Shown here piece by piece: positions 7,545-25,102 of a DNA stretch of 64,000 bases. This DNA comes from Candidatus Sumerlaeia bacterium (GTDB taxonomy: Bacteria; Sumerlaeota; Sumerlaeia; SLMS01). A program made the position numbers and the translations under genes. Below the pieces are notes generated by a model. That model was not told where the DNA came from, made no database searches, and saw only the letters and a program-made list of their open reading frames with translations. Position 1 is the stretch's first letter; each line of letters opens with the position of its first letter. The DNA lies in contig JBBQYG010000002.1 in the NCBI GenBank assembly GCA_038208905.1, positions 3,626-67,625 of the forward strand, given 5' to 3'.

Positions 7545-8066
7545 ATGGCTACCAACAAGCAGCAGGACAAGCAGGTTCACACAATGGCCGCGAATGAGGA
7601 TGCCCTGACGGACGCCCCCGGTACGCACCAGGCCGGAATTGGCGTTGGGGCCGCAGGCGGCGCCGTCGTGGGGGCCGCTATGGGCACGGGGGTCGCTGGG
7701 CCCCTCGGCGGCTTGGCCGGCGCAACGATCGGCGCCGTCGCCGGGGGCCTTTTTGGCAAGGGCGCGGCGGAAGCGTTCGACCCGACCCTCGAACTGGACT
7801 ACTGGCGCGATGCCTATGTCGAGCGCCCCTACTACGATTCGCAGTACACCTTCGACAGCTACGAGCCCGCCTATCGCTACGGCTGGGAATCCAAGTCCCG
7901 TATGATCGACAAGGACTGGGACGACGTTGAGGGCGACCTCGAACGCGACTGGTCCAAGGCGCGAGGCAACAGCAGCCTCTCCTGGGAAGGCGCCAAGGAG
8001 GCGGTTCGCGACGCCTGGGATCGCCTGACCGGGGACACCCCCACTCCGCCGCGCAAGCACCGGTAG
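7545..8066 (+). CDS. Glycine-zipper stress-associated protein (hypothetical)
   Basis: 173 aa; N-terminal Gly/Ala zipper (GIGVGAAGGAVVGAAMGTGVAGPLGGLAGATIGAVAGGLFG) followed by an acidic, Trp/Tyr-rich domain. Good RBS (AGGAATAA) upstream. Sits with the YciF-like and ElaB-like genes. Confidence 0.5.
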   Translation: MATNKQQDKQVHTMAANEDALTDAPGTHQAGIGVGAAGGAVVGAAMGTGVAGPLGGLAGATIGAVAGGLFGKGAAEAFDPTLELDYWRDAYVERPYYDSQYTFDSYEPAYRYGWESKSRMIDKDWDDVEGDLERDWSKARGNSSLSWEGAKEAVRDAWDRLTGDTPTPPRKHR

Positions 8067-8663: not shown

Positions 8664-9863
8664 GTGAAAGCCATCGGCCCGCGAATCCTGACGATCAATG
8701 GCGGCTCCTCGAGCATCAAGTTTGCTCTTTTCGAAGCCGGTGATTCGCTCCCGCTCATTTTGAAGGGCGGCATTGATGGCATCGGATCGCCGGATGCCAC
8801 CCTGCGGGTGGAAGGATCTCACAGTTTCTCGCGGCTGATTTCGTCTCCCGGTCGCGCCGGGGCGGTGGAGGCCTTGATGGACTGGCTCGAAGAGTTCAAC
8901 GGAAGCGAGCCGTTCGACGCGGTGGGACATCGTGTAGTCCACGGTGGGCCAAGGTATTGGGAGCCACGGCGTATCAACGCCGAATTGATTGGCGAATTGC
9001 AGCGACTCAGCCCATTTGACGCCGACCATCTGCCGGAGGAAATCCGGCTGACTCAGGCGTTTCATCGCCGGTTTCCCGACCTCCCCCAGATCGCCTGCTT
9101 CGATACGGCCTTTCACCATGACCTGCCGCGCGTGGCGCAGTTGCTGCCCATCCCACGCCGATTCGAATCGCAGGGGGTGCGGCGCTATGGGTTCCACGGA
9201 TTGTCATACGAATTTCTCATGTTGGAACTCGCCCGCCTAGCGGGCGGGGATGCGGCGCATGGACGCATCATCCTCGCCCATCTCGGCAGCGGAGCGAGCC
9301 TGGCGGCGGTGCGAGACGGCGAGCCTGTGGACACCAGCATGAGCTTCACCCCGACGAGCGGAGTGCCGATGGGAACCCGTTCCGGAGACCTCGATCCGGG
9401 ACTCTTTTGGTATCTATCGCGCACCCAGAAGATGAGCCCCTGGCAGTTCCACGAGATGGTCGATTCCGGATCCGGGTTGCTTGGCATGTCGGAAACCAGC
9501 TCGGACATGCGCGATCTGCTCGCCTGCGAATCGCATGACGTGCGCGCAGCCGAGGCGGTCGCCCTGTTTTGCTATCAAATCAAGAAGTGGATCGGCGCGT
9601 ATGCGGCGGCGCTAGGCGGACTCGACACGCTGGTATTTGCCGGCGGAATCGGGGAGAACGCCCCCGTCATCCGTGCACGGATTTGCGAGGGGCTGGAGTT
9701 TCTTGGAGTCGAACTCGAAGAGGAATCAAATGCTACGGGCGTGCCCGTCATCTCCTCGGCGGTCAGCCGTGTTGTGGTGCGGGTTGTCCCGACAGATGAG
9801 CAGTGGATGATCGCAAACAAAGTGTGTCGGGTCTTGGAACTTGGTCAGAAACGGGAGGATTGA
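8664..9863 (+). CDS. ackA: Acetate kinase
   Basis: [17 protein letters not shown] (ATP-binding N-term), [64 protein letters not shown]. All are hallmark acetate/propionate kinase motifs. Probable GTG start at 8664 with GGGGA RBS; six-frame ORF begins earlier at 8580. Confidence 0.85.
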
Positions 9864-9865
9864 GC

Positions 9866-12232
9866 ATGGAGATGCCTACACTTTCTCCGGAAGTGCTCGA
9901 CGCCATCGATGCCTATTGGCGCGCCGCCAACTACCTGTCGGTAGGCCAGCTTTACCTCCGCGACAATCCGCTGCTGAGACGCCCTCTGGCAGCGACCGAC
10001 ATTAAGCACCTGCTGCTCGGCCACTGGGGCACGACGCCGGGCCAGAATTTCATTTATGTCCACCTAAACCGGGTCATCAAGAAGTTCGATCTGAACATGA
10101 TCTACGTGGCGGGCCCCGGTCACGGCGGCCCAGCCCTCGTCGGTAACACCTACCTTGAGGGAACTTACAGCGAGGTATATCCCCACATCAGCCGGGATGA
10201 GGCGGGGCTGCAAAAGCTGTTTAAGCAGTTCTCCTTTCCCGGCGGAATACCCAGCCACGTATCGCCGGAGTGCCCTGGCTCGATCCACGAGGGTGGTGAA
10301 TTGGGATACTCGCTCAGCCACTCGTTCGGCGCGGTGTTCGATAATCCCGATCTCGTCGTGGCCTGCGTGATTGGCGATGGGGAGGCCGAAACCGGACCGC
10401 TCGCCACGTCGTGGCATTCCAACAAATTCCTCAACCCCATCTCAGACGGTGTTGTGTTGCCGATTCTACATCTGAACGGTTACAAGATCGCCAATCCGAC
10501 GATCTTCGCGCGGATCGAGCCTGAGGAGCTAGACCAGTTGCTGCGCGGCTATGGTTGGAAGCCCTACTACGTTGAGGGCCACGAGCCCGGGCTGATGCAC
10601 GAGGCTATGGCTACCACGCTCGATGCAGTAATGGAGGAGATCAAGCGCATCCAGCACGAAGCGCGCGTCAACGGCAACACCATGCGCCCGCGCTGGCCGA
10701 TGATCGTGCTCAAGTCACCGAAAGGCTGGACGGGCGTGAAATGGGTGGACGGCCTCCAAATCGAGGGCACGTTCCGCGCGCACCAAGTGCCGCTCTCCGG
10801 TCCGCGGGAGAATCCCGAACATCTCAGGTTGCTTGAGGAGTGGATGCGCAGCTACCGCCCGGAAGAACTCTTCGACGAGCAGGGGCAGTTGATGCCGGAA
10901 CTGGCGGATCTGGCACCCGAGGGCGAACGCCGCATGGGCGCGAATCCCCATGCCAACGGCGGCCTACTGCTGCGCGACCTCATCATGCCGGACTTTCGAG
11001 ACTACGCGGTGGACGTGCCGTTCCCCGGCGCCGTGGAGGCTTCCGACGCGCATGAGCTGGGCGTGTTCCTGCGTGACGTGACCAAGCTAAACCAGGAACA
11101 CCGCAATTTCCGCATCTTTGGCCCCGACGAAACGCTTTCCAATCGCCTGAACGCAGTCTTCGAGGTGACGGATCGACAGTGGGACGCACGCATCCAGGAT
11201 GACGACGAGTTCCTCGCCTTGGAAGGTCGCGTCATGGAAATGTTGAGCGAGCACCAATGCGAAGGCTGGCTCGAAGGATACTTGCTGACCGGTCGCCACG
11301 GGCTTTTCAATAGCTACGAAGCATTCATTCACATCGTTGACTCGATGTTCAACCAGCATGCCAAGTGGCTGAAGGTCACGGCAGGACTGCCGTGGAGGCG
11401 GGAGATCGCGTCGCTGAACTACCTGCTGGCTTCCCATGTCTGGCAACAGATGCACAACGGTCTGACACATCAGGACCCAGGCTTTATCGATATCGTCGCG
11501 AACAAGAAGGCCTCCGTCGTGCGGGTCTATCTGGCTCCGGATGCAAATTGCCTGCTCTCGATCTGGGATCATTGTTTGCGCAGCCGCCACTACGTCAACG
11601 TCGTGATTGCTGGCAAATATATGGCGCCGCAGTGGCTGACGATGGACGCCGCGGTGAAGCATTGCTCCGAGGGAATCGGCATCTGGCAGTGGGCGAGCAG
11701 TGACCAAGGCGGCGAGCCCGATGTCGTCATGGCCTGCTGTGGCGATGTGCCCACCCTTGAGACCATGGCCGCCGTCTCCATCATGCGCAAGCATCTCCCC
11801 GACCTAAAAGTCCGTGTCGTCAACGTCGTTGATCTGATGAAACTGCAACCGCAGAGCGAGCATCCGCACGGTCTGAGCGATCAGGTCTTCGACGCACTTT
11901 TCACCAAGGACAAGCATGTGATCTTCGCCTTCCACGGCTATCCTTGGCTGATTCACCGTCTCACATACCGGCGGACCAACCATCACAACATTCACGTTCG
12001 CGGCTACAAGGAGGAGGGCACAATCACGACCCCATTTGACATGACAGTCCTGAATCAGCTCGACCGCTTCCATTTGGTGATGGACACGATCGATCGCCTG
12101 CCTCAGACGGGCGAAAGGGGCATCCAGCTGAAAAGCGGGCTCCAGAATAAGCTCGTTGAACACAAACGCTTCATCGACGAGCATGGCTTGGATATGCCGG
12201 AGATACGCAATTGGAAGTGGAGTAGCTCATAA
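9866..12232 (+). CDS. xfp: Xylulose-5-phosphate/fructose-6-phosphate phosphoketolase
   Basis: ~790 aa; [91 protein letters not shown] are classic Xfp signatures. ATG 3 nt after ackA stop with GGGAGGA RBS inside ackA 3' end. Confidence 0.9.
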
Positions 12233-12382: not shown

Positions 12383-13926
12383 ATGAATAGAATCCAGAAA
12401 TTCTGGAACGATCTGCGATCCAACTTCTGGTTCGTTCCTTCGATCATCGTCCTGGTCAGTATTGCTCTTGCGGCGGTTCTGATTGGCGCAGACTCCACGG
12501 CCAGCCGACAATGGCTCGGTCAATGGCCGCGGCTGTTTGGGTCGGGGGCCGAGGGCGCTCGCGGAATGATGTCAACGATTGCGGGCTCGATGATGACCGT
12601 GGTGGGCGTTTCGTTCTCCATGATCCTGATGGTTCTGGCATTGGCTTCCACCCAATATACCTCACGTGTTCTGCGGAATTTCATGCGTAGCCGCGAAACG
12701 CAGGTCGTGCTCGGGATATTCGCCGGCATCTTCACCTATAGTCTAATCGTTCTGCGCTCGATTCGCAGCGGCGACGAGGGCGCGTTTGTTCCAAGCCTGG
12801 CGGTCTTTTTTGGCTTCGTACTGGCGCTCGGTGGGGTGGGAACCCTCATCTTCTTTATCCATCACATTGCCTCTTCGATTCAGGCTTCCAGCATCATCGC
12901 GTCAGTTGCCTACGAAACCATGGCAGCCATGGACCGCCTGTTTCCTGAAAAGCTTGGACAGGAACCGGAAGTGGAGTTGGACGATTCCATCATTCACCCG
13001 CTTGGCGAGCGGAGTTGGCACCCCATCCTGTCTGCTCGCAACGGGTACATTCTAAACGTGGACACCGATGCGCTCCTGTCCGTGGCGCGCGAACAAAAGA
13101 CAATCGTGCGAATGGAACGTGGCATCGGCCAGTTCACTGTTCAGAACACCGTCCTTTTCTCTCTCGCGATGGAAGAGCCGCCGAACAATAAGACGATCAA
13201 AGCCCTGCTGGCGGCCTTCGACATCAGCAGCCACCGCACGATCGAGCAGGACATAGAATTTGGCATTCGACAAATCGTTGATATCGCGATGAGGGCCCTA
13301 TCGCCCGGGGTCAACGACACCACGACGGCCGTAATGTGCGTCGACTACTTGACGGCGATCATGGCGCGCCTTGCGCCGCGACCCATGCCATCATTGCACC
13401 GCCACGAGGATGGACATTTGCGGGTGATCGCCAAGGCCCTGAGTTATGACGGATTGTTGGCAGAAGCGTTTGACCAGATTCGCAGCAACTCCAAGGGCAA
13501 TGTTGCCGTCATGCGGCGAATGCTCGGAGGTCTTCAAACCGTCGCCGCCCTAACGGCCAGGCCGGACCGGCGTCGAGCGATTAGCCAACAAGTGCGGTGG
13601 ATCGCCGATATCGCCGATCGCACGCTCGACTATGCTCAGGACCGCGCGGAGATCAACACCGCCTTGGAGTCCGTGCGCGAAATGCTGGAATTCGATCCTA
13701 TCGGGGAGCATGAGAACGACATGGAAGTCTTGCCGCTGATTCGCGAGTGGAGCGATAAACGGCCCGCGGAGCCATGCACACGCGAAACCGGCATCGAGGC
13801 CATGAGGCGACGGGCAATCGATCGATGGGAAAACGAAGGCGGAGTGATCCTGCCGCCCGAGCCCGGTGAACCGCGAGGCGGCGCGCGAGTCTCAGATTCG
13901 GTCGCAGCCCGGGGGTACCTGACGCC

Positions 13927-13930
<4 letters not shown>
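12383..13930 (+). CDS. DUF2254-family integral membrane protein
   Basis: 515 aa; N-terminal multi-TM region (FWFVPSIIVLVSIALAAVLIG...MMTVVGVSFSMILMVLALASTQYTSRVLRNF) then a large soluble domain. Pattern recalled as DUF2254. 4-bp ATGA overlap with the downstream gene. Confidence 0.45.
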
Positions 13931-17207: not shown

Positions 17208-17919
17208 TCCTGACGAAATTGTATACTGGCAGTATGGATACTTCAAACTCAACGCCACGCTCGTGTTCACGTGGGGGCTGATGCTGTTGCTCGCCGTCGG
17301 CTCGAAGGTCATTACGAGAAAACTCTCGGTCGATCTGGATCGCTCGCGCTGGCAGAACTTTGTGGAGATCATTGTTTTGGGAATCATGAAGCAAATCGAG
17401 GAGGTTGGTTTGGCCAACCCGAGGAAATATCTGGCATTTCTGGGCACGCTCTTTCTGTTCATCGCCATGGCTAGTCTCTGCACGATCATTCCCGGGTATG
17501 AGACACCGACCGGTTCTCTGTCCACCACCATTGCGCTCGCTCTCTGCGTGTTCGTCGCTGTGCCACTCTTCGGCATCGAGGATCAAGGATTGATTGACTA
17601 CCTAAAGTCCTACCTGAAGCCGACCTACATCATGCTCCCCTTCAATGTCATCAGCGAGTTATCTCGTACGCTGGCTCTGGCCGTCCGCCTGTTTGGCAAT
17701 ATGATGAGCGGCGCGATGATCGTCGCGATCCTCGTCACCATCACGCCGCTCATCTTTCCGATCGTCATGACGCTACTCGGGCTTTTGACCGGTATGGTGC
17801 AGGCCTATATCTTCACCATTCTAGCCGCCGTCTATATCGCGGCCGCGATGCACGTGCGCGGCGCGGCGGGCGACGCGAAGGAATCGCAATCCAACCAGAC
17901 CGCCGCGGTCGGAAAGTGA
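17197..17919 (+). CDS. atpB: ATP synthase F0 subunit a
   Basis: 240 aa polytopic protein with the invariant a-subunit arginine in ALAVRLFGNMMSG. Confidence 0.8.
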   Translation: MRLSPDEIVYWQYGYFKLNATLVFTWGLMLLLAVGSKVITRKLSVDLDRSRWQNFVEIIVLGIMKQIEEVGLANPRKYLAFLGTLFLFIAMASLCTIIPGYETPTGSLSTTIALALCVFVAVPLFGIEDQGLIDYLKSYLKPTYIMLPFNVISELSRTLALAVRLFGNMMSGAMIVAILVTITPLIFPIVMTLLGLLTGMVQAYIFTILAAVYIAAAMHVRGAAGDAKESQSNQTAAVGK

Positions 17920-18617
17920 GGAACGGGATGCTTCACCGGGAAAAGCATCGGACGGACCGCATCGGCTGGCTGCCTGCGACCGTTCTCGGCGCAAACGACG
18001 GTGTCGTTTCGACCGCCAGTCTAATCGTCGGCGTCGCGGCAGCCCATGCCACCAGCGCCCAAATCCTTATAGCTGGCGCGACAGGATTGGTCGCCGGAAC
18101 CATGTCGATGGCGGCTGGAGAATACGTTTCGGTCAGTTCCCAGGCGGATACCGAGGCGGTGGATATTGCCATCGAAGAGGGGGAAATCGCGGCCGACCCG
18201 GGGAGAGAATTGATCGAGTTGGCGAGGATATGTGAGTCGCGTGGACTTGATCCCGCCCTTGCGACACAGGCAGCCGAGCAACTTACCGCCAGGGACGCGC
18301 TCGGTGCCCACGCCCGCGACGAACTCGGCATATTCTACGCCCTGAGAGCCAAACCCGTGCAGGCGGCGTTTGCTTCGTCGGGCTCATTGGCCGTGGGCGC
18401 CGCCATGCCACTGTTGACGGTAGTCGTTTCTGCCGAGCGCTACCTGATCCTGCTGGTTTCCAAATTCTCTCTGCTTCTCCTTGCGCTACTGGGCGGCGCG
18501 GCCGCGTTCGCCGGGGGCGCCAGTGCGAGGAAAGGGGCTCTGAGCGTCACTCTATGGGGCGCTTTCGCGATGGTTATCACCGCCGCCGTCGGAACTCTAT
18601 TTGGAGCCGTGCGATGA
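17916..18617 (+). CDS. VIT1/CCC1-family (Fe2+/Mn2+) transporter embedded in the ATPase operon
   Basis: LGANDGVVSTASLIVGVAAA, MSMAAGEYVSVSSQ, acidic cytoplasmic stretch EAVDIAIEEGEIAADPGRELIELARICESRGLDPALATQAAEQL, then three C-terminal TM helices. This is the full VIT1 topology with no N-terminal ferritin domain. GTG at 17916 overlaps the atpB stop; alternative ATG at 17928. Confidence 0.7.
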   Translation: MRNGMLHREKHRTDRIGWLPATVLGANDGVVSTASLIVGVAAAHATSAQILIAGATGLVAGTMSMAAGEYVSVSSQADTEAVDIAIEEGEIAADPGRELIELARICESRGLDPALATQAAEQLTARDALGAHARDELGIFYALRAKPVQAAFASSGSLAVGAAMPLLTVVVSAERYLILLVSKFSLLLLALLGGAAAFAGGASARKGALSVTLWGAFAMVITAAVGTLFGAVR

Positions 18618-19806: not shown

Positions 19807-21356
19807 ACGGAGAGCCTGAAAGCCTGCGGAAGGTCTTCGACGGCGCCTTTGCCCGTGTGACCGAGGCGAGGGAAGCGTTCTCGCCGACACTGACACCGCG
19901 CGAAGTGGGTGTGATCGCGAGTGTCTCAACCGGCATTGCCATCGTCACGGGATTGCCCGGCGTGAGCTATGATGAAGTGCTCACGTTCCCCGGCGGCGTA
20001 CCCGGCATCGCCTTCAACGTGGACGAGGAAGAAGTGGGCGTTGTTCTGCTCCGCGCCTATTGGCACCTGAAGGCTGGCGATGAAGTGCAGCGCACGGGAC
20101 GCGTCATGGAGGTGGGAGTGGGTGACGGATTGCTGGGTCGCGTCCTCGACCCACTTGGTCAGCCGCTCGATGGCAACGGACCCTTGACCTTCAGCGGGCG
20201 ACTGCCGGTTGAGCGCCCCGCACCGCCGATCATGGATCGCGCGCCCGTTACCGTTCCGCTTCAGACCGGACTCAAGGTCGTCGATGCGCTCATTCCCGTG
20301 GGGCGAGGCCAGCGCGAATTGATTCTGGGCGACCGCCAGACAGGCAAAACTGCTGTCGCGATCGACACCATCCTCAATCAGAAGAACCACAATGTGGTTT
20401 GCGTCTATTGCGCCATCGGGCAGCGCGCGTCGGCGGTTGCCAAGACGGTGGCAAGCATGAGGGAGCGGGGCGCGATGGAATACACCGTTGTCGTGGTGGC
20501 AGAAGGCGACGCCCCGCCTGGTCTCTCCTACATCGCTCCCTATGCGGCCACGAGCATCGCCGAATCCTTCATGGAAGCGGGGAGGGATGTGCTGATCGTT
20601 TACGACGATCTGACGCATCATGCCCGCGCCTATCGCGAACTCTCGCTTCTGCTCCGCCGGCCCCCCGGTCGCGAGGCGTTTCCCGGCGACATCTTCTACA
20701 TCCACTCTCGCCTGCTTGAGCGGGCGACGCATCTGCGCAAGGAACTCGGCGGCGGGTCACTCTCCGCGCTCCCCATCATCGAGACGGAAGCCCAAAACCT
20801 TTCGGCCTATATTCCCACGAACCTGATTTCCATAACGGATGGACAGATATATCTGTCTCCCGCGCTGTTTGAGCTTGGCGTCCTGCCCGCCGTCGATGTC
20901 GCCAAATCGGTCTCGCGCGTCGGCGGGAAAGCCCAGAGGCCTGCCTACAGGGCGGTAACGGGCGACCTTAAGCTCGCCTACTCGCAGTTCGAGGAGCTCG
21001 AAACCTTCTCCCGCTTCGGAGCCCGGCTGGACGAGAGCACGCGCAAAATTATCGATCATGGGCGACGTATTCGAGCCTGCCTCAAGCAGCCCGAATTCAC
21101 CCCCGTTCCCGTTATGGGGCAAATTGCCATTCTGTTGGCACTGAGCGAGGGTCTCTTCGACCAAGTACCGATCGAGAAGATGACGGACGCCGAAACTGCC
21201 GTGCAGGATGCGGCGGATAAGATCCCCGCGGAGGTCAGCGAGCGACTGGATACCGCCGACAAGTTGAGCGATCAGGATCGCGAGGCGATCCTCCAGATTG
21301 TCCGCACCGCCCTCCTTCCGTTCCAGCAAAAACCTGAACCGGACAAGAAGCCGTGA
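19803..21356 (+). CDS. atpA: ATP synthase F1 alpha subunit
   Basis: [20 protein letters not shown]-loop; full alpha-subunit length (517 aa). Confidence 0.9.
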
Positions 21357-22246
21357 GCGACACCTCCGCAAGCCTGCGCAGGAAAATCGACAGCGCGACA
21401 GATCTCCAATCTGTGGTGCGAACGATGAGGGCTCTCGCAGCCTCCAGCATCACACAATACGAACAATCGGTGCGCTCCCTGACCGAGTACTATCGCATTG
21501 TGGAGCTTGGGCTGGGTGCCTGCCTTCGGGAACGCGGCACGATGACCTTGCTTGCAAAGAAGAAGAATACGGCAAGGGTCGCTGCAATTACCGCGGTGGT
21601 GTTCGGATCAGACCAGGGACTTGTTGGTCAGTTCAATGATGAGGTAGTCGATTTCGCCTCGCAGACACTCGCGTCCCTGCCGGCAAAACCGGAAATCTGG
21701 GCCGTGGGCGAACGCGTTCAAGCCTCGCTGGCCGACGCGGGATTTCCTACACGGGGGCTCTTCGCGGTGCCCGGATCCGCGAAGGCGATCACGCCACTCA
21801 TCGGACGGATTCTCGTGGAGAGCGCGTCGGGTTCCGCACACACAATACATGGTGAATTCCACCTCTTCTATAATCGTCCCAAAACCGGCGCCGCCTATGC
21901 CCCTGTTCATCAGCGTCTGTTGCCGCTCGACGAAAGCTGGCGCAGCAGACTGGCCGCGATCCCCTGGCCGAATGGGAACAAGCCCCAAATCAGGGAGGAT
22001 CACAACGGGACCTTGAGGGCGCTCGTGCGTGAGTACCTCTTCGTCTCCCTTTTTCGCGCTTGCGCCGAATCCCTTGCGAGCGAGAACGCGAGTCGCCTTG
22101 CTGCAATGCAGCGCGCCGACAAAAACATCGACGATCTGCTCGAGGAACTTAATAGCACCTTTCATCGCTTGCGCCAGGACGGTATCGACGCGGAGCTCTT
22201 CGATGTCATTTCCGGCTTTGTTGCGTTGAGCGGGAAAAAGAAGTGA
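21353..22246 (+). CDS. atpG: ATP synthase F1 gamma subunit
   Basis: 297 aa; N-terminal helix [26 protein letters not shown] and C-terminal helix typical of gamma. Last gene of the operon. Confidence 0.75.
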
Positions 22247-22531
22247 CTTCAATCCTTCGATTGGCTATGCTCCTGAGCCACGCGCTGGGGGGGCGATTCC
22301 TGAATCTCAGCGAAGGCACTTGCCAGGCGCATTGCCAAAGTAATCTCCAAGCGATACTTTCATTACATACCAATATGGAACCGCCGCCGCCACCTCGCAG
22401 AATGAAGAGCGCCGGATTCGGCTAGGCTTGCGGGGCTCCAAGGCGAACCGTATCCGTCCCGCCCCGACCATGTTGACTTGGGCCCCCTGTGCTGCTCGAC
22501 TGCCGCTTTTCCATCTTGCTGGGGAGAGCGG

Positions 22532-22992
22532 TCATGGGCACGAAGCGGGAATCCGTGTCGGCGGAGCGGGGTATTATCGTTGAGCGGTTCGAGGCGAGCG
22601 GGCTTTCAATGGCGGAGTTTTGCCGGCGGGAGGGGATAGCGTATTCGCAGTTCATGTCCCGGAGGAAGCGGCTTTCGTCCCCGGGTGAATCAGTCGGCGG
22701 CTTTGCGGAGCTGGTGCTGGCGCCGGGGGGCGGGTCGCCCGCGGAAGCGGCGCTCGTGGATCGCCACATCCGGGTCAACGGGGTCGCCCCCGGCCCCATT
22801 TGGACTCCCTTCATTCCAGCCATGGGCAGGGCACCGGATGACGTTGCCGCCCACGGCGACTCCTCGCCAATGAAACGCGCAGGCCAGCCCACCGAATGCG
22901 CCTCCGCCTTCGTGTTCCTCGCGTCGCTGGACAGTACCTCCATGACCGGTCAGGGACTCCACCCCAACGGCGGGGCGATCGTGAACGGCTGA
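22532..22992 (+). pseudogene. Chimeric remnant: IS66-family TnpA (orfA) N-terminal fragment fused in frame to the C-terminal ~85 aa of an SDR (YghA/YdaD general-stress dehydrogenase-like)
   Basis: N-part RESVSAERGIIVERFEASGLSMAEFCRREGIAYSQFMSRRKRL is the HTH of IS66 orfA-type proteins. From ...VDRHIRVNGVAPGPIWTPF...PMKRAGQPTECASAFVFLASLDSTSMTGQGLHPNGGAIVNG it is the conserved SDR C-terminus. No Rossmann TGxxxGxG N-terminus, no orfB/orfC. Confidence 0.6.
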
Positions 22993-23217
22993 TAATTAAA
23001 GGCCTCCGATTGCATTGCGCCCGGCATCATCAGGGTTTTCTGCACGGGAATCTAGTGTGGCGCCTACCGCGCCGACCCGCAGTTTTCACGCAAGATCAGG
23101 AAGGCCAACGATACGCGCCGAAGCAAACAGTTCGCAATCGATGGCCCGCTGTTTGATAGGGGTACATGGCTCGCGCATCCGAATTGTAGACGCTGCCAAA
23201 CTCAGAAAGGTCTTCCG

Positions 23218-23835
23218 ATGAAGCTAAAGAATCTCGAAGCACTCTACGTCGAACAGTTGCAGGACATGCATAGCGCCGAACGCCAGCTCGTGGCGGCCCT
23301 GCCCAAGATGGTCAAGGCGGCAAGTCACCCCGGCCTGGCGGCGGCGTTCAAATCCCACCTCGAGCAAACCAAGCATCACGTCGTAAGCGTTGCTGGGATC
23401 CTTGAGGGGATGGGAAAGAAGGCAGGCGGGAAGAAGTGCAAGGCGATGGAAGGCCTTGTCAAGGAAGGCTCGGAGATCATCGCTGAAGACGCCGAGGAGG
23501 AAGTCCGCGACGCGGGGCTCATCTGCGCCGCGCAGAAGATCGAGCACTACGAGATCGCCACCTACGGCTGCCTTCGCACCTTCGCCGCCCTGCTGGGGAG
23601 AGTTAAGGAGTCTACCCTCCTCCAGAAGCTGCTCGACGAGGAGAAGACCGCCGACGAAGCCCTTACATCCCTCGCAACGGCCGCGATCAATTCCCAGGCC
23701 ATGTCTCCCCCGATGGATGCGGAGCCCCGCCCCAAGCGTGCCGCGGCGCCGCGCCCCAAAGGCGCATCAGGCGCGTCGAGTGCCAAAAAGACTGTCCCGC
23801 CCAAGTCGAAACCGGCATCGCGCGGCAAGACCTGA
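23218..23835 (+). CDS. Ferritin-like DUF892 (YciF family) protein, second paralog, with Lys/Pro/Ala-rich C-terminal tail
   Basis: LEALYVEQLQDMHSAERQLVAALPKM...AAQKIEHYEIATYGCLRTFA parallels the 6472-6984 paralog. Basic low-complexity tail PKRAAAPRPKGASGASSAKKTVPPKSKPASRGKT. Confidence 0.7.
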   Translation: MKLKNLEALYVEQLQDMHSAERQLVAALPKMVKAASHPGLAAAFKSHLEQTKHHVVSVAGILEGMGKKAGGKKCKAMEGLVKEGSEIIAEDAEEEVRDAGLICAAQKIEHYEIATYGCLRTFAALLGRVKESTLLQKLLDEEKTADEALTSLATAAINSQAMSPPMDAEPRPKRAAAPRPKGASGASSAKKTVPPKSKPASRGKT

Positions 23836-24246: not shown

Positions 24247-24337
24247 TGGCGGACAGGGAGAGATTCGAACTCTCGGTGGGGGTTTAGCCCACACACGCGT
24301 TCCAGGCGTGCGCCTTAAACCACTCGGCCACCTGTCC
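24247..24337 (-). tRNA. tRNA-Ser (anticodon GGA), with encoded CCA
   Basis: Reverse complement reads GGACAGGTGGCCGAGTGGTTTAAGGCGCACGCCTGGAACGCGTG...GAGAGTTCGAATCTCTCCCTGTCCGCCA: 7-bp acceptor, D-arm, anticodon loop CUGGAAC, long variable arm (type II), T-arm GTTCGAATC. Confidence 0.85.
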
Positions 24338-24433: not shown

Positions 24434-25102
24434 TCAGATCGCGAAGCCGCGCCCCGGGCCGAAGTAGAAGATGTCCCCGTCGCTGATTGTTCCATTGGTG
24501 GGGTCATAGATCTGGCCGCTGCCGTGGACGTGGGGGCCCGTGGGCGCGGTGATGTGGGGCACGTTCATGTCGTGCTTTTTGTCGGGACCAAAGCTGACGA
24601 AGAAGTAGGCCACGTTGGATGGTGGCTCCTGGCCGGTAACCTCCAGAAAGAACACCCGCCACACAGTGTTCCAGTTGGAGGTGGGGGAGTTGTTCCGGCG
24701 GATCTGAACATAGTCCCACGTGATGCAGTGATAGATTTGAGACTCGCCATGCCGCACTTTTTCCGCAAAGGGATCGTTGGAAAGCGACGTGATATAGGCC
24801 ACCGGCGTCGTCAGCAGGATCGGCAGGCGCGTTTCCATCGGGTTCACCGTCAGCGCCATCACGGGGCTGGGGATATAGGCCCCCCTATCGTCGGACGGAA
24901 CGGCATAGCGGCCGTTGTCCACATGGTAGGCCTCCATGGCGACGGAGAAGGAGCGCATGTCGCTCTTGACGCGAGATATCTTGGAGCGGGTCTGGGCCTC
25001 CAGAAAGTTGGGCACCGCGATGGCCGCAAGGATGGCAATGATCGCGACGACGATGAGGAGTTCGATGAGGGTGAAGGCACGGCGGGGGCTGGCGTGTGGC
25101 AT
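24434..25102 (-). CDS. Prepilin-type N-terminal cleavage/methylation-domain protein (type II secretion pseudopilin-like)
   Basis: N-terminus MPHASPRRAFTLIELLIVVAIIAILAAIAVPNFLEAQTRSK is a class III signal/prepilin motif. A His...DG motif (HGSGQIYDPTNGTISDGD) lies near the C-terminus. Confidence 0.75.
   Translation of the reverse strand: MPHASPRRAFTLIELLIVVAIIAILAAIAVPNFLEAQTRSKISRVKSDMRSFSVAMEAYHVDNGRYAVPSDDRGAYIPSPVMALTVNPMETRLPILLTTPVAYITSLSNDPFAEKVRHGESQIYHCITWDYVQIRRNNSPTSNWNTVWRVFFLEVTGQEPPSNVAYFFVSFGPDKKHDMNVPHITAPTGPHVHGSGQIYDPTNGTISDGDIFYFGPGRGFAI

Follow-up and report, generated by a model that had tools for sequence, protein, structure and literature searches.

Organization of the region downstream of atpG

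The window, by which we mean the whole 64-kb stretch of DNA that was analysed, carries an N-ATPase operon whose last gene, atpG, spans positions 21353..22246 on the + strand, according to the Pfam annotation of a syntenic metagenome contig (L001). A 203-bp spacer with no recognisable content (22247-22449) separates atpG from the left terminal inverted repeat (IRL) of an IS66-family insertion sequence. This is followed by an ORF that starts with an ATG at 22534, 287 bp past the atpG stop codon, and ends with a TGA at 22990-22992. As read from the sequence and its ORFs, positions 22534..22992 of the + strand encode a product of 152 aa plus the stop, identical to database protein P0001; a preliminary description of this DNA had given 22532 as the start and 153 aa as the length, and both figures are corrected here. 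An in-frame GTG at 22489, upstream of the ATG, would extend the ORF to 167 aa; the ATG at 22534 is considered the true start of the parental tnpA, since intact relatives begin MGAKRESVW at the equivalent position. The IS remnant and the ORF, which we refer to together as the scar, lie outside the operon. Located 225 bp downstream of the ORF there is a gene for a DUF892 / YciE-like ferritin-like protein (23218..23835, + strand), and further on, both on the - strand, a tRNA-Ser(GGA) (24247-24337), 1.25 kb downstream of the scar, and a gene for a prepilin-type N_methyl protein typical of Planctomycetota and Verrucomicrobiota (24434-25102). For the block beside it, this tRNA gene may serve as an integration landmark. 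Neither sigma-70-like promoters nor convincing terminators were found in the scar region.

In L001, which is ~99% identical to the window, the Pfam assignments along the operon are beta, epsilon, ATPase_gene1 (AtpQ), AtpR, a, a VIT1 insert, c, b, alpha and gamma. Apart from the inserted gene, this is the canonical order of N-ATPase operons, atpDCQRBEFAG, which include atpR and atpQ, contain no delta subunit and have been laterally transferred as whole operons (PMC2881411). The closest relatives of the gamma subunit among GTDB species representatives are ~70% identical to it, with none above 72%, and the best 80 matches belong to Acidobacteriota, Desulfobacterota, Nitrospirota, Omnitrophota, Planctomycetota, Verrucomicrobiota, Chloroflexota and others, in agreement with that report. 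The insert is a VIT1-family (PF01988) gene, found at 17916-18617 (+ strand), where it follows atpB (a subunit), with a 4-bp overlap, and precedes atpE (c subunit). A VIT1 homologue was present near one of 80 other N-ATPase loci (L063), there just before atpG, and comparison of the window with L001 and with another related contig, L002, gave 8-9 non-synonymous and 1-2 synonymous differences in this gene, unlike the pattern of the atp genes described below.

Upstream of the operon, the segment 8580-13930 (+ strand) includes a phosphoketolase gene (9803-12232; NF003619, 1446 bits), a preceding ORF of 427 aa and a DUF2254 gene (12383-13930). Homologues with up to 82% identity were located near N-ATPase loci of other phyla, in 22 of 80 for the phosphoketolase, 4 of 80 for the 427-aa ORF and 13 of 80 for DUF2254, the latter being placed either upstream of atpD or downstream of atpG, and the three look like accessory genes travelling with the N-ATPase cassette. 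Within 10 kb of atpG, homologues of the short-chain dehydrogenase (SDR) from which part of the scar derives, of DUF892 and of the scar's TnpA were found at none of 80 other N-ATPase loci; because of this absence, the SDR remnant and DUF892 are regarded as genes of the flank and not of the cassette. The search for an intact SDR at the scar position gave no close relative, and the ancestral arrangement was not observed. The nearest DUF892 homologues (<=66% identity) are part of a DUF892-BON-DUF883 cluster with no adjacent SDR.

A TnpA N-terminus joined in frame to an SDR C-terminus

The ORF at 22534..22992 is a chimera of two parents, the N-terminus of an IS66-family TnpA (residues 1 to ~75) and the C-terminus of an SDR of the YghA/YdaD type (residues ~76-152, with the SDR profile match beginning at ~72). 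A search with the product in a database of 5.8 billion proteins returned 460 matches, and more than 55% of the query was covered only in the same-locus variants P0001 and P0002, the remaining matches listed being 264-aa SDRs aligned with the second half or 106-aa proteins aligned with the first. The preliminary description had already read the ORF as an in-frame chimera of this kind, headed by the helix-turn-helix region of an IS66 TnpA (orfA), and this reading stands: two unrelated families match, each with separate intact parents in the databases, and no single family matches the product from end to end, as only the same-locus variants span both halves.

The tnpA-derived part (22534..22757, + strand), delimited by a match to profile NF047593 and by alignment with nine TnpA relatives, corresponds to residues 1 to ~75 of the 106 of TnpA; it keeps the helix-turn-helix region and has lost the C-terminal ~30 residues. 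The score against NCBIfam NF047593 (IS66_ISAeme5_TnpA) was 44.8 bits, with a cut-off of 28, over profile positions 10-62 of 79 only. Intact TnpAs of 106 aa include P0003, 84% identical over the first 76 residues of the chimera, and P0004, with 79% identity to the first half. This subfamily is rare, with 11 clusters in the database of 5.8 billion proteins, and no relative of P0003 was confirmed among GTDB species representatives, a set that apparently lacks the genome to which the window belongs, since the best gamma-subunit match in it is only 72% identical. As for the elements that carry intact versions, contig L003 contains tnpA, tnpB (PF05717) and the start of tnpC, and L004 is a complete, more distant relative with tnpA, TnpB (NF033819, 112 bits) and a DDE TnpC (NF033517, 418 bits). 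The metagenome to which L001 belongs has, at another locus, one more degraded piece of this IS family (L093 1-244; JGI 3300007799 contig Ga0105049_10034609); its tnpA carries an in-frame TAG, and IS similarity stops at codon ~64.

Alignment of intact IS left ends to the scar region, a check proposed in the preliminary description and done here with metagenome relatives, gave similarity spanning 22450-22760. The retained left end (22450..22760, + strand, 311 bp, delimited by blastn) consists of the IRL, a 62-bp leader and tnpA codons 1 to ~75, and is 89.4% identical to L003 883-1193, 91% to L091 and 78% to L004 31-322, all similarity ending at 22760. The IRL, GTATCCGTCCCGCCCCGACCAT (22450..22471, + strand), aligns with positions 31-52 of L004, where the IRL starting at position 31 reads GTATCCGTCCCGACCAGACCAT. 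The inverted partner at the right end of L004 (2436-2457) reads CTAAGCGTCCCGTCTCGACCAT inward from 2457, with a 16/22 match to the IRL, and the terminal inverted repeats of L004 are 2,426 bp apart. Four unrelated left flanks, those of the window, L003, L004 and a further contig, L118, lose similarity exactly left of 22450; as judged from these alignments, an IS terminus is present and is placed precisely at 22450. The termini of L004 (IRR, TAAGCGTCCCG; IRL, GTATCCGTCCCG) are similar to the canonical IS66 terminal repeat, which begins GTAAGCGTCC as reported for ISPsk01 (PMC12888890), and the right repeat matches the canonical one. The IRL of the window differs from canonical GTAAGCG at two positions. 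IS66 elements generate an 8-bp target duplication, and no obvious 8-bp duplication was seen at the inferred ends of the full-length relative L004. The preliminary description had counted the terminal repeats among the absent parts, together with orfB, orfC and the Rossmann N-terminus of the SDR; this has to be amended for the left repeat, present at 22450-22471, and holds for tnpB, tnpC, the right repeat and the SDR 5' half, which are missing from the 64-kb window.

Ahead of the ORF, a Shine-Dalgarno-like motif of tnpA, GGGGAGAG, can be read at 22521..22528 (+ strand), its last base 5 nt before the ATG. The equivalent ribosome-binding motif, GAGGAGAGCGGTCATG (GGAG-type), is conserved in L003, L004, L091 and L093, which suggests that the translation signals of the IS itself, with a putative Shine-Dalgarno function, are kept in front of the chimeric ORF.

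The SDR-derived tail (22761..22992, + strand) corresponds to ~residues 187-264 of homologues of 264 aa and shows 70% identity to residues 184-261 of P0006 and 69% to residues 186-264 of P0011. It matches positions 213-292 of 293 of PRK06701 (NF005214), with 90.3 bits and a family cut-off of 413, and positions 161-234 of 236 of Pfam adh_short_C2; the best solved structure is PDB 3i3o/3ijr (3i3o residues 212-291 of 291), followed by 3r3s. In comparison with the YghA/YdaD SDRs (PRK06701, PRK06128, PRK07985; 3i3o/3ijr, 3r3s), ~78 C-terminal residues align end to end with 57-70% identity and include the shared IRVNxVAPG segment and C-terminal GQxLHxNGG motif, whereas ~185 N-terminal residues are gone, among them the TGxxxGxG cofactor site and the Ser / YxxxK residues. 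The catalytic Y-A-[A/S]-T-K (YxxxK) of P0006 and P0011 sits upstream of the retained segment, the scar starting just before IRVNG, and the tail cannot be catalytic because the piece that is left lies after this motif. The description of this part as the C-terminal catalytic-tail region of a YghA/YdaD-like SDR was thus right about the SDR C-terminus and wrong about catalysis, as it contains no catalytic residue. Judged as a classical SDR (PRK06701), it lacks the TGxxxGxG Rossmann fold and the catalytic Ser plus YxxxK, and it scores below the family cut-off. Mutations also affect two family-conserved positions: a His stands in place of the Gly before IRVNG, and in GQVLHPNGG the Val has become Gly.

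The two alignments meet in a breakpoint zone, GCGCTCGTGGA (Ala-Leu-Val-Asp; 22750..22760, + strand), that fits both parents and leaves the exact crossover ambiguous. The TnpA alignment reaches residue 76 and the SDR alignment begins AALVDR; the SDR consensus just before IRVNG is L-[A/V/I]-[E/D]-[K/R]-G (n=114 homologues), and TnpA relatives have AL[L/V/A]EI at the junction. At the DNA level, GCGCTCCTGGA is followed by GATCGTG in the IS, versus GCGCTCGTGGA followed by TCGCCAC in the window. Such ambiguity is as expected for a microhomology-mediated illegitimate deletion, where the microhomology would have involved the ancestral SDR DNA.

Searches of the 64-kb window revealed no additional copy of the IS piece or of the SDR piece, no SDR 5' half and neither TnpB nor TnpC; full-length SDR queries matched nothing else in it, and TnpB and TnpC of L004 gave no match when used as tblastn queries. 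The missing SDR 5' half, which the preliminary description had proposed to look for elsewhere, did not turn up in the window; there is no further SDR-like segment in 22000-23300 or in the rest of it, and no SDR remnant left of the IRL. These absences make an insertion inside the SDR less likely and favour an insertion upstream of it. In terms of a complete IS66 element, TnpA is represented at the locus, and TnpB (PF05717 / NF033819), TnpC (NF033517) and a pair of terminal repeats are not.

Recurrence and drift of the scar in other assemblies

The junction is identical base for base in L001 (JGI 3300007799), L002 (ENA ERZ27246989) and L118 (JGI 3300007521). L001, a 12.9-kb contig, shares synteny with the window beginning at DUF2254, along the N-ATPase operon and as far as the pseudopilin-like gene. 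L002 matches the window with ~99% identity until ~23118 and is unrelated from its position 7620 onward, which defines a second breakpoint ~130 bp downstream of the scar.

The native SDR frame is kept in the window and in L118. In the other two of the four assemblies, L001 and L002, one extra A at 22824..22825 (+ strand) causes a +1 frameshift that splits the ORF into pieces of 102 aa and 40 aa. When the window was compared with L001 and L002, differences amounted to 2.1% in the SDR part of the scar (3 non-synonymous, 1 synonymous and 1 indel), 0.9-1.3% in the tnpA part and 1.8-3.2% in flanking intergenic DNA, versus 0.1-0.5%, mostly synonymous, in atpD, atpF, atpA and atpG. All scar copies have other residues in place of Trp9 and Trp19 of TnpA, which most intact relatives possess, and Trp43, found in eight out of eight intact relatives, has been substituted in the window alone; in the SDR motif GQVLHPNGG, the Val is Gly in the window and Ile in the other scar copies. 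These counts, all of which point one way though they are small (5-8 events), suggest relaxed constraint. The chimeric ORF is a drifting pseudogene, and its frame is open in the window by chance.

The segment 22247-22533 (287 bp), which comprises the spacer between atpG and the IRL, the IRL itself and the tnpA leader, shows no differences in three assemblies, versus 1-3% in the adjacent ORF and downstream spacer; at local rates of ~1%, zero differences in 287 bp is not significant. A hidden RNA was looked for in this invariant segment, with no match in Rfam (only the tRNA gave a meaningful one) and a fold z-score of +0.37.

The fourth assembly differs on the left side. L118 is a 1,028-bp contig (Ga0105044_10517012) with the IS-SDR junction and downstream DNA as in the window, and its first 66 bp (L118 1-66) are unrelated to the flank of the window, the switch taking place exactly at the IS terminus (left of the equivalent of 22450). 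This 66-bp flank has no match in the window or in any of the fetched loci. In addition, within a tnpA patch located approximately at 22663..22700 (+ strand; alignment columns 307-343), the window, L001 and L002 differ from L118 at 10 positions; at nine of these L118 has the same base as an intact IS variant, and the remaining one is peculiar to L118. The patch reads RLSSPGESVGG in the window, as in P0003, and RRSSSAERVGG in L118/P0129, as in P0133, a pattern that may reflect gene conversion. L118 could be either a version of the scar that recombined with intact IS copies (by gene conversion, perhaps together with a rearrangement of its left flank mediated by the IS) or the product of a mis-join in the assembly graph, passing through the repeated IS end. 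The neighbourhood of the scar is clearly rearrangement-prone.

Origin of the scar and its significance

We consider it very probable that the scar is a decaying pseudogene that resulted from one illegitimate deletion after an IS66 insertion. An IS66-family element of ~2.4 kb, with an ISAeme5-type TnpA, TnpB and a DDE TnpC, would have entered the DNA between atpG and an SDR gene of the YghA/YdaD type, with the orientation of the latter. One illegitimate deletion, at least 2.7 kb long and extending from tnpA codon ~75 into the SDR gene at codon ~186 (at least 2.1 kb of the IS and at least 0.55 kb of the SDR), would then have eliminated the tnpA 3' end together with tnpB and tnpC, the right inverted repeat, whatever spacer there was and the 5' two-thirds of the SDR gene (~185 codons), probably by way of a short sequence that encodes Ala-Leu-Val-Asp/Glu in each of the two genes. 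Because both endpoints are internal, the transposase would not have made this deletion. The frames would have matched by chance (1 in 3), leaving the ribosome-binding site and ATG of the IS at the head of a 152-aa ORF that ends at the native stop of the SDR; its product would have neither the nucleotide-binding fold nor any catalytic residue, and the ORF would since have been drifting as a pseudogene. Some observations go against parts of this scheme. Two of the four assemblies (window and L118) have an uninterrupted ORF, which keeps the tnpA ribosome-binding site, so that expression is possible, and the differing left flank of L118 implies more than one event at the IS end, unless this contig is an assembly chimera.

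The openness of the ORF in the window and L118, the preservation of the tnpA leader with its Shine-Dalgarno motif, the identity in three assemblies of the 287 bp before the ATG and the presence of intact IS relatives in the same metagenomes would all fit a functional domesticated fusion, in which the helix-turn-helix of TnpA with its new tail acts in trans as a repressor or inhibitor of related IS66 copies, or controls the stress gene that lies downstream. We regard such a role as very unlikely: the frameshift removes the tail in two of four assemblies, the changes in the ORF are mostly non-synonymous and fall at conserved positions, and the invariance of the 287 bp is, as indicated above, not significant at local rates. 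Besides, an SDR tail deprived of the cofactor-binding and catalytic parts has no known autonomous fold or function, and the fusion is limited to one population of ~99% identity, with no diverged homologues. That the IS and the SDR were falsely joined during metagenome assembly is hardly credible. The contig is MAG-like, IS repeats commonly break or mis-join assemblies, and the left side of L118 may itself be such a mis-join, but the appearance of the same junction in three other metagenome assemblies rules out misassembly; the junction is base-identical in four assemblies from at least three samples obtained with different pipelines (the 68-kb NCBI contig, JGI 3300007799, JGI 3300007521 and ENA ERZ27246989), and the scar copies have in common private tnpA substitutions that are absent from intact IS copies.

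Alternatively, the scar could record the arrival of the N-ATPase block, joined to the IS left end by a transposase-driven rearrangement at the terminus or by homologous recombination between two IS copies, with the IS as vehicle or docking site instead of bystander. L118 could be taken in this sense, with the same junction and downstream DNA and unrelated sequence beyond the IRL from the very terminus, and so could the tnpA part, a mosaic of scar copies and intact IS variants that points to recombination with other copies. The loss of synteny of L002 ~130 bp downstream of the scar and the laterally mobile character of the N-ATPase cassette (PMC2881411) are also in line with it. Against this, L118 has only 1,028 bp, with 66 bp of alternative flank that a graph mis-join through the IS end explains equally well; the 22 kb upstream contain no second IS copy, IS end or target duplication, and the 10-kb flanks of the 80 other N-ATPase loci are devoid of TnpA homologues. 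On balance we find this origin unlikely, and an IS insertion followed by one deletion and by decay remains the preferred explanation. The preliminary description was correct in pointing to past IS activity and deletion next to the N-ATPase operon, given that atpG is followed by the IS left end and then by the SDR tail, with the breakpoint at 22750-22760. Its further claim, that the scar supports a mobile history for the block, is not sustained: there is IS activity beside the operon, and no second IS copy or IS end bounds the N-ATPase block in the 22 kb upstream. The scar is evidence of IS activity and deletion at the right edge of the cassette, and no demonstration that the IS moved it.

The locus resembles classical IS66 elements (tnpA-tnpB-tnpC, such as ISPsk01 and ISPa75) in that its TnpA scores above the NCBIfam cut-off and its intact relatives show the TnpA/TnpB/DDE-TnpC layout. 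Truncated chromosomal IS66 remnants are known, for instance the delta-ISPa75-like one (PMC12888890). Unlike a classical element, only the leftmost 311 bp of ~2.4 kb are left, which are not transposable, and the remnant ends inside tnpA, in frame with a host gene. Truncated transposase-derived inhibitors are another point of comparison, including Inh of Tn5, InsA of IS1 and OrfA of IS911. Like these, the chimera contains the DNA-binding N-terminal portion of an IS protein, lacks a catalytic partner and is encoded beside one IS end; unlike them, two of four scar variants are frameshifted and there is no sign of conservation, and any inhibitor role would be putative. To our knowledge, the function of TnpA in IS66 elements is poorly defined.

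There is nothing unusual in this scar, in which an IS remnant and a gene fragment are fused. It adds one more case to a well-known kind, stems from an IS66-family element that is rare and unnamed and whose left terminus it supplies, and leaves what is known of IS66, SDRs and N-ATPases unchanged. For annotation purposes, the ORF should be labelled as a pseudogene / IS remnant, and neither as 'SDR family oxidoreductase' nor as transposase. Since IS debris comes right after atpG, and beyond it lie host stress genes that are not carried along with the cassette, the scar delimits the N-ATPase cassette of this lineage on its right-hand side. Its importance would be raised only by the L118 polymorphism, if this is real at the read level. 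The IS left end would then be an active recombination joint, at whose terminus the N-ATPase block is attached or detached within one population, with the related possibility that the 152-aa TnpA helix-turn-helix fusion inhibits related IS copies in trans. We hold this to be improbable; if true, the joint would provide a directly observable mechanism by which an N-ATPase cassette changes its genomic location.
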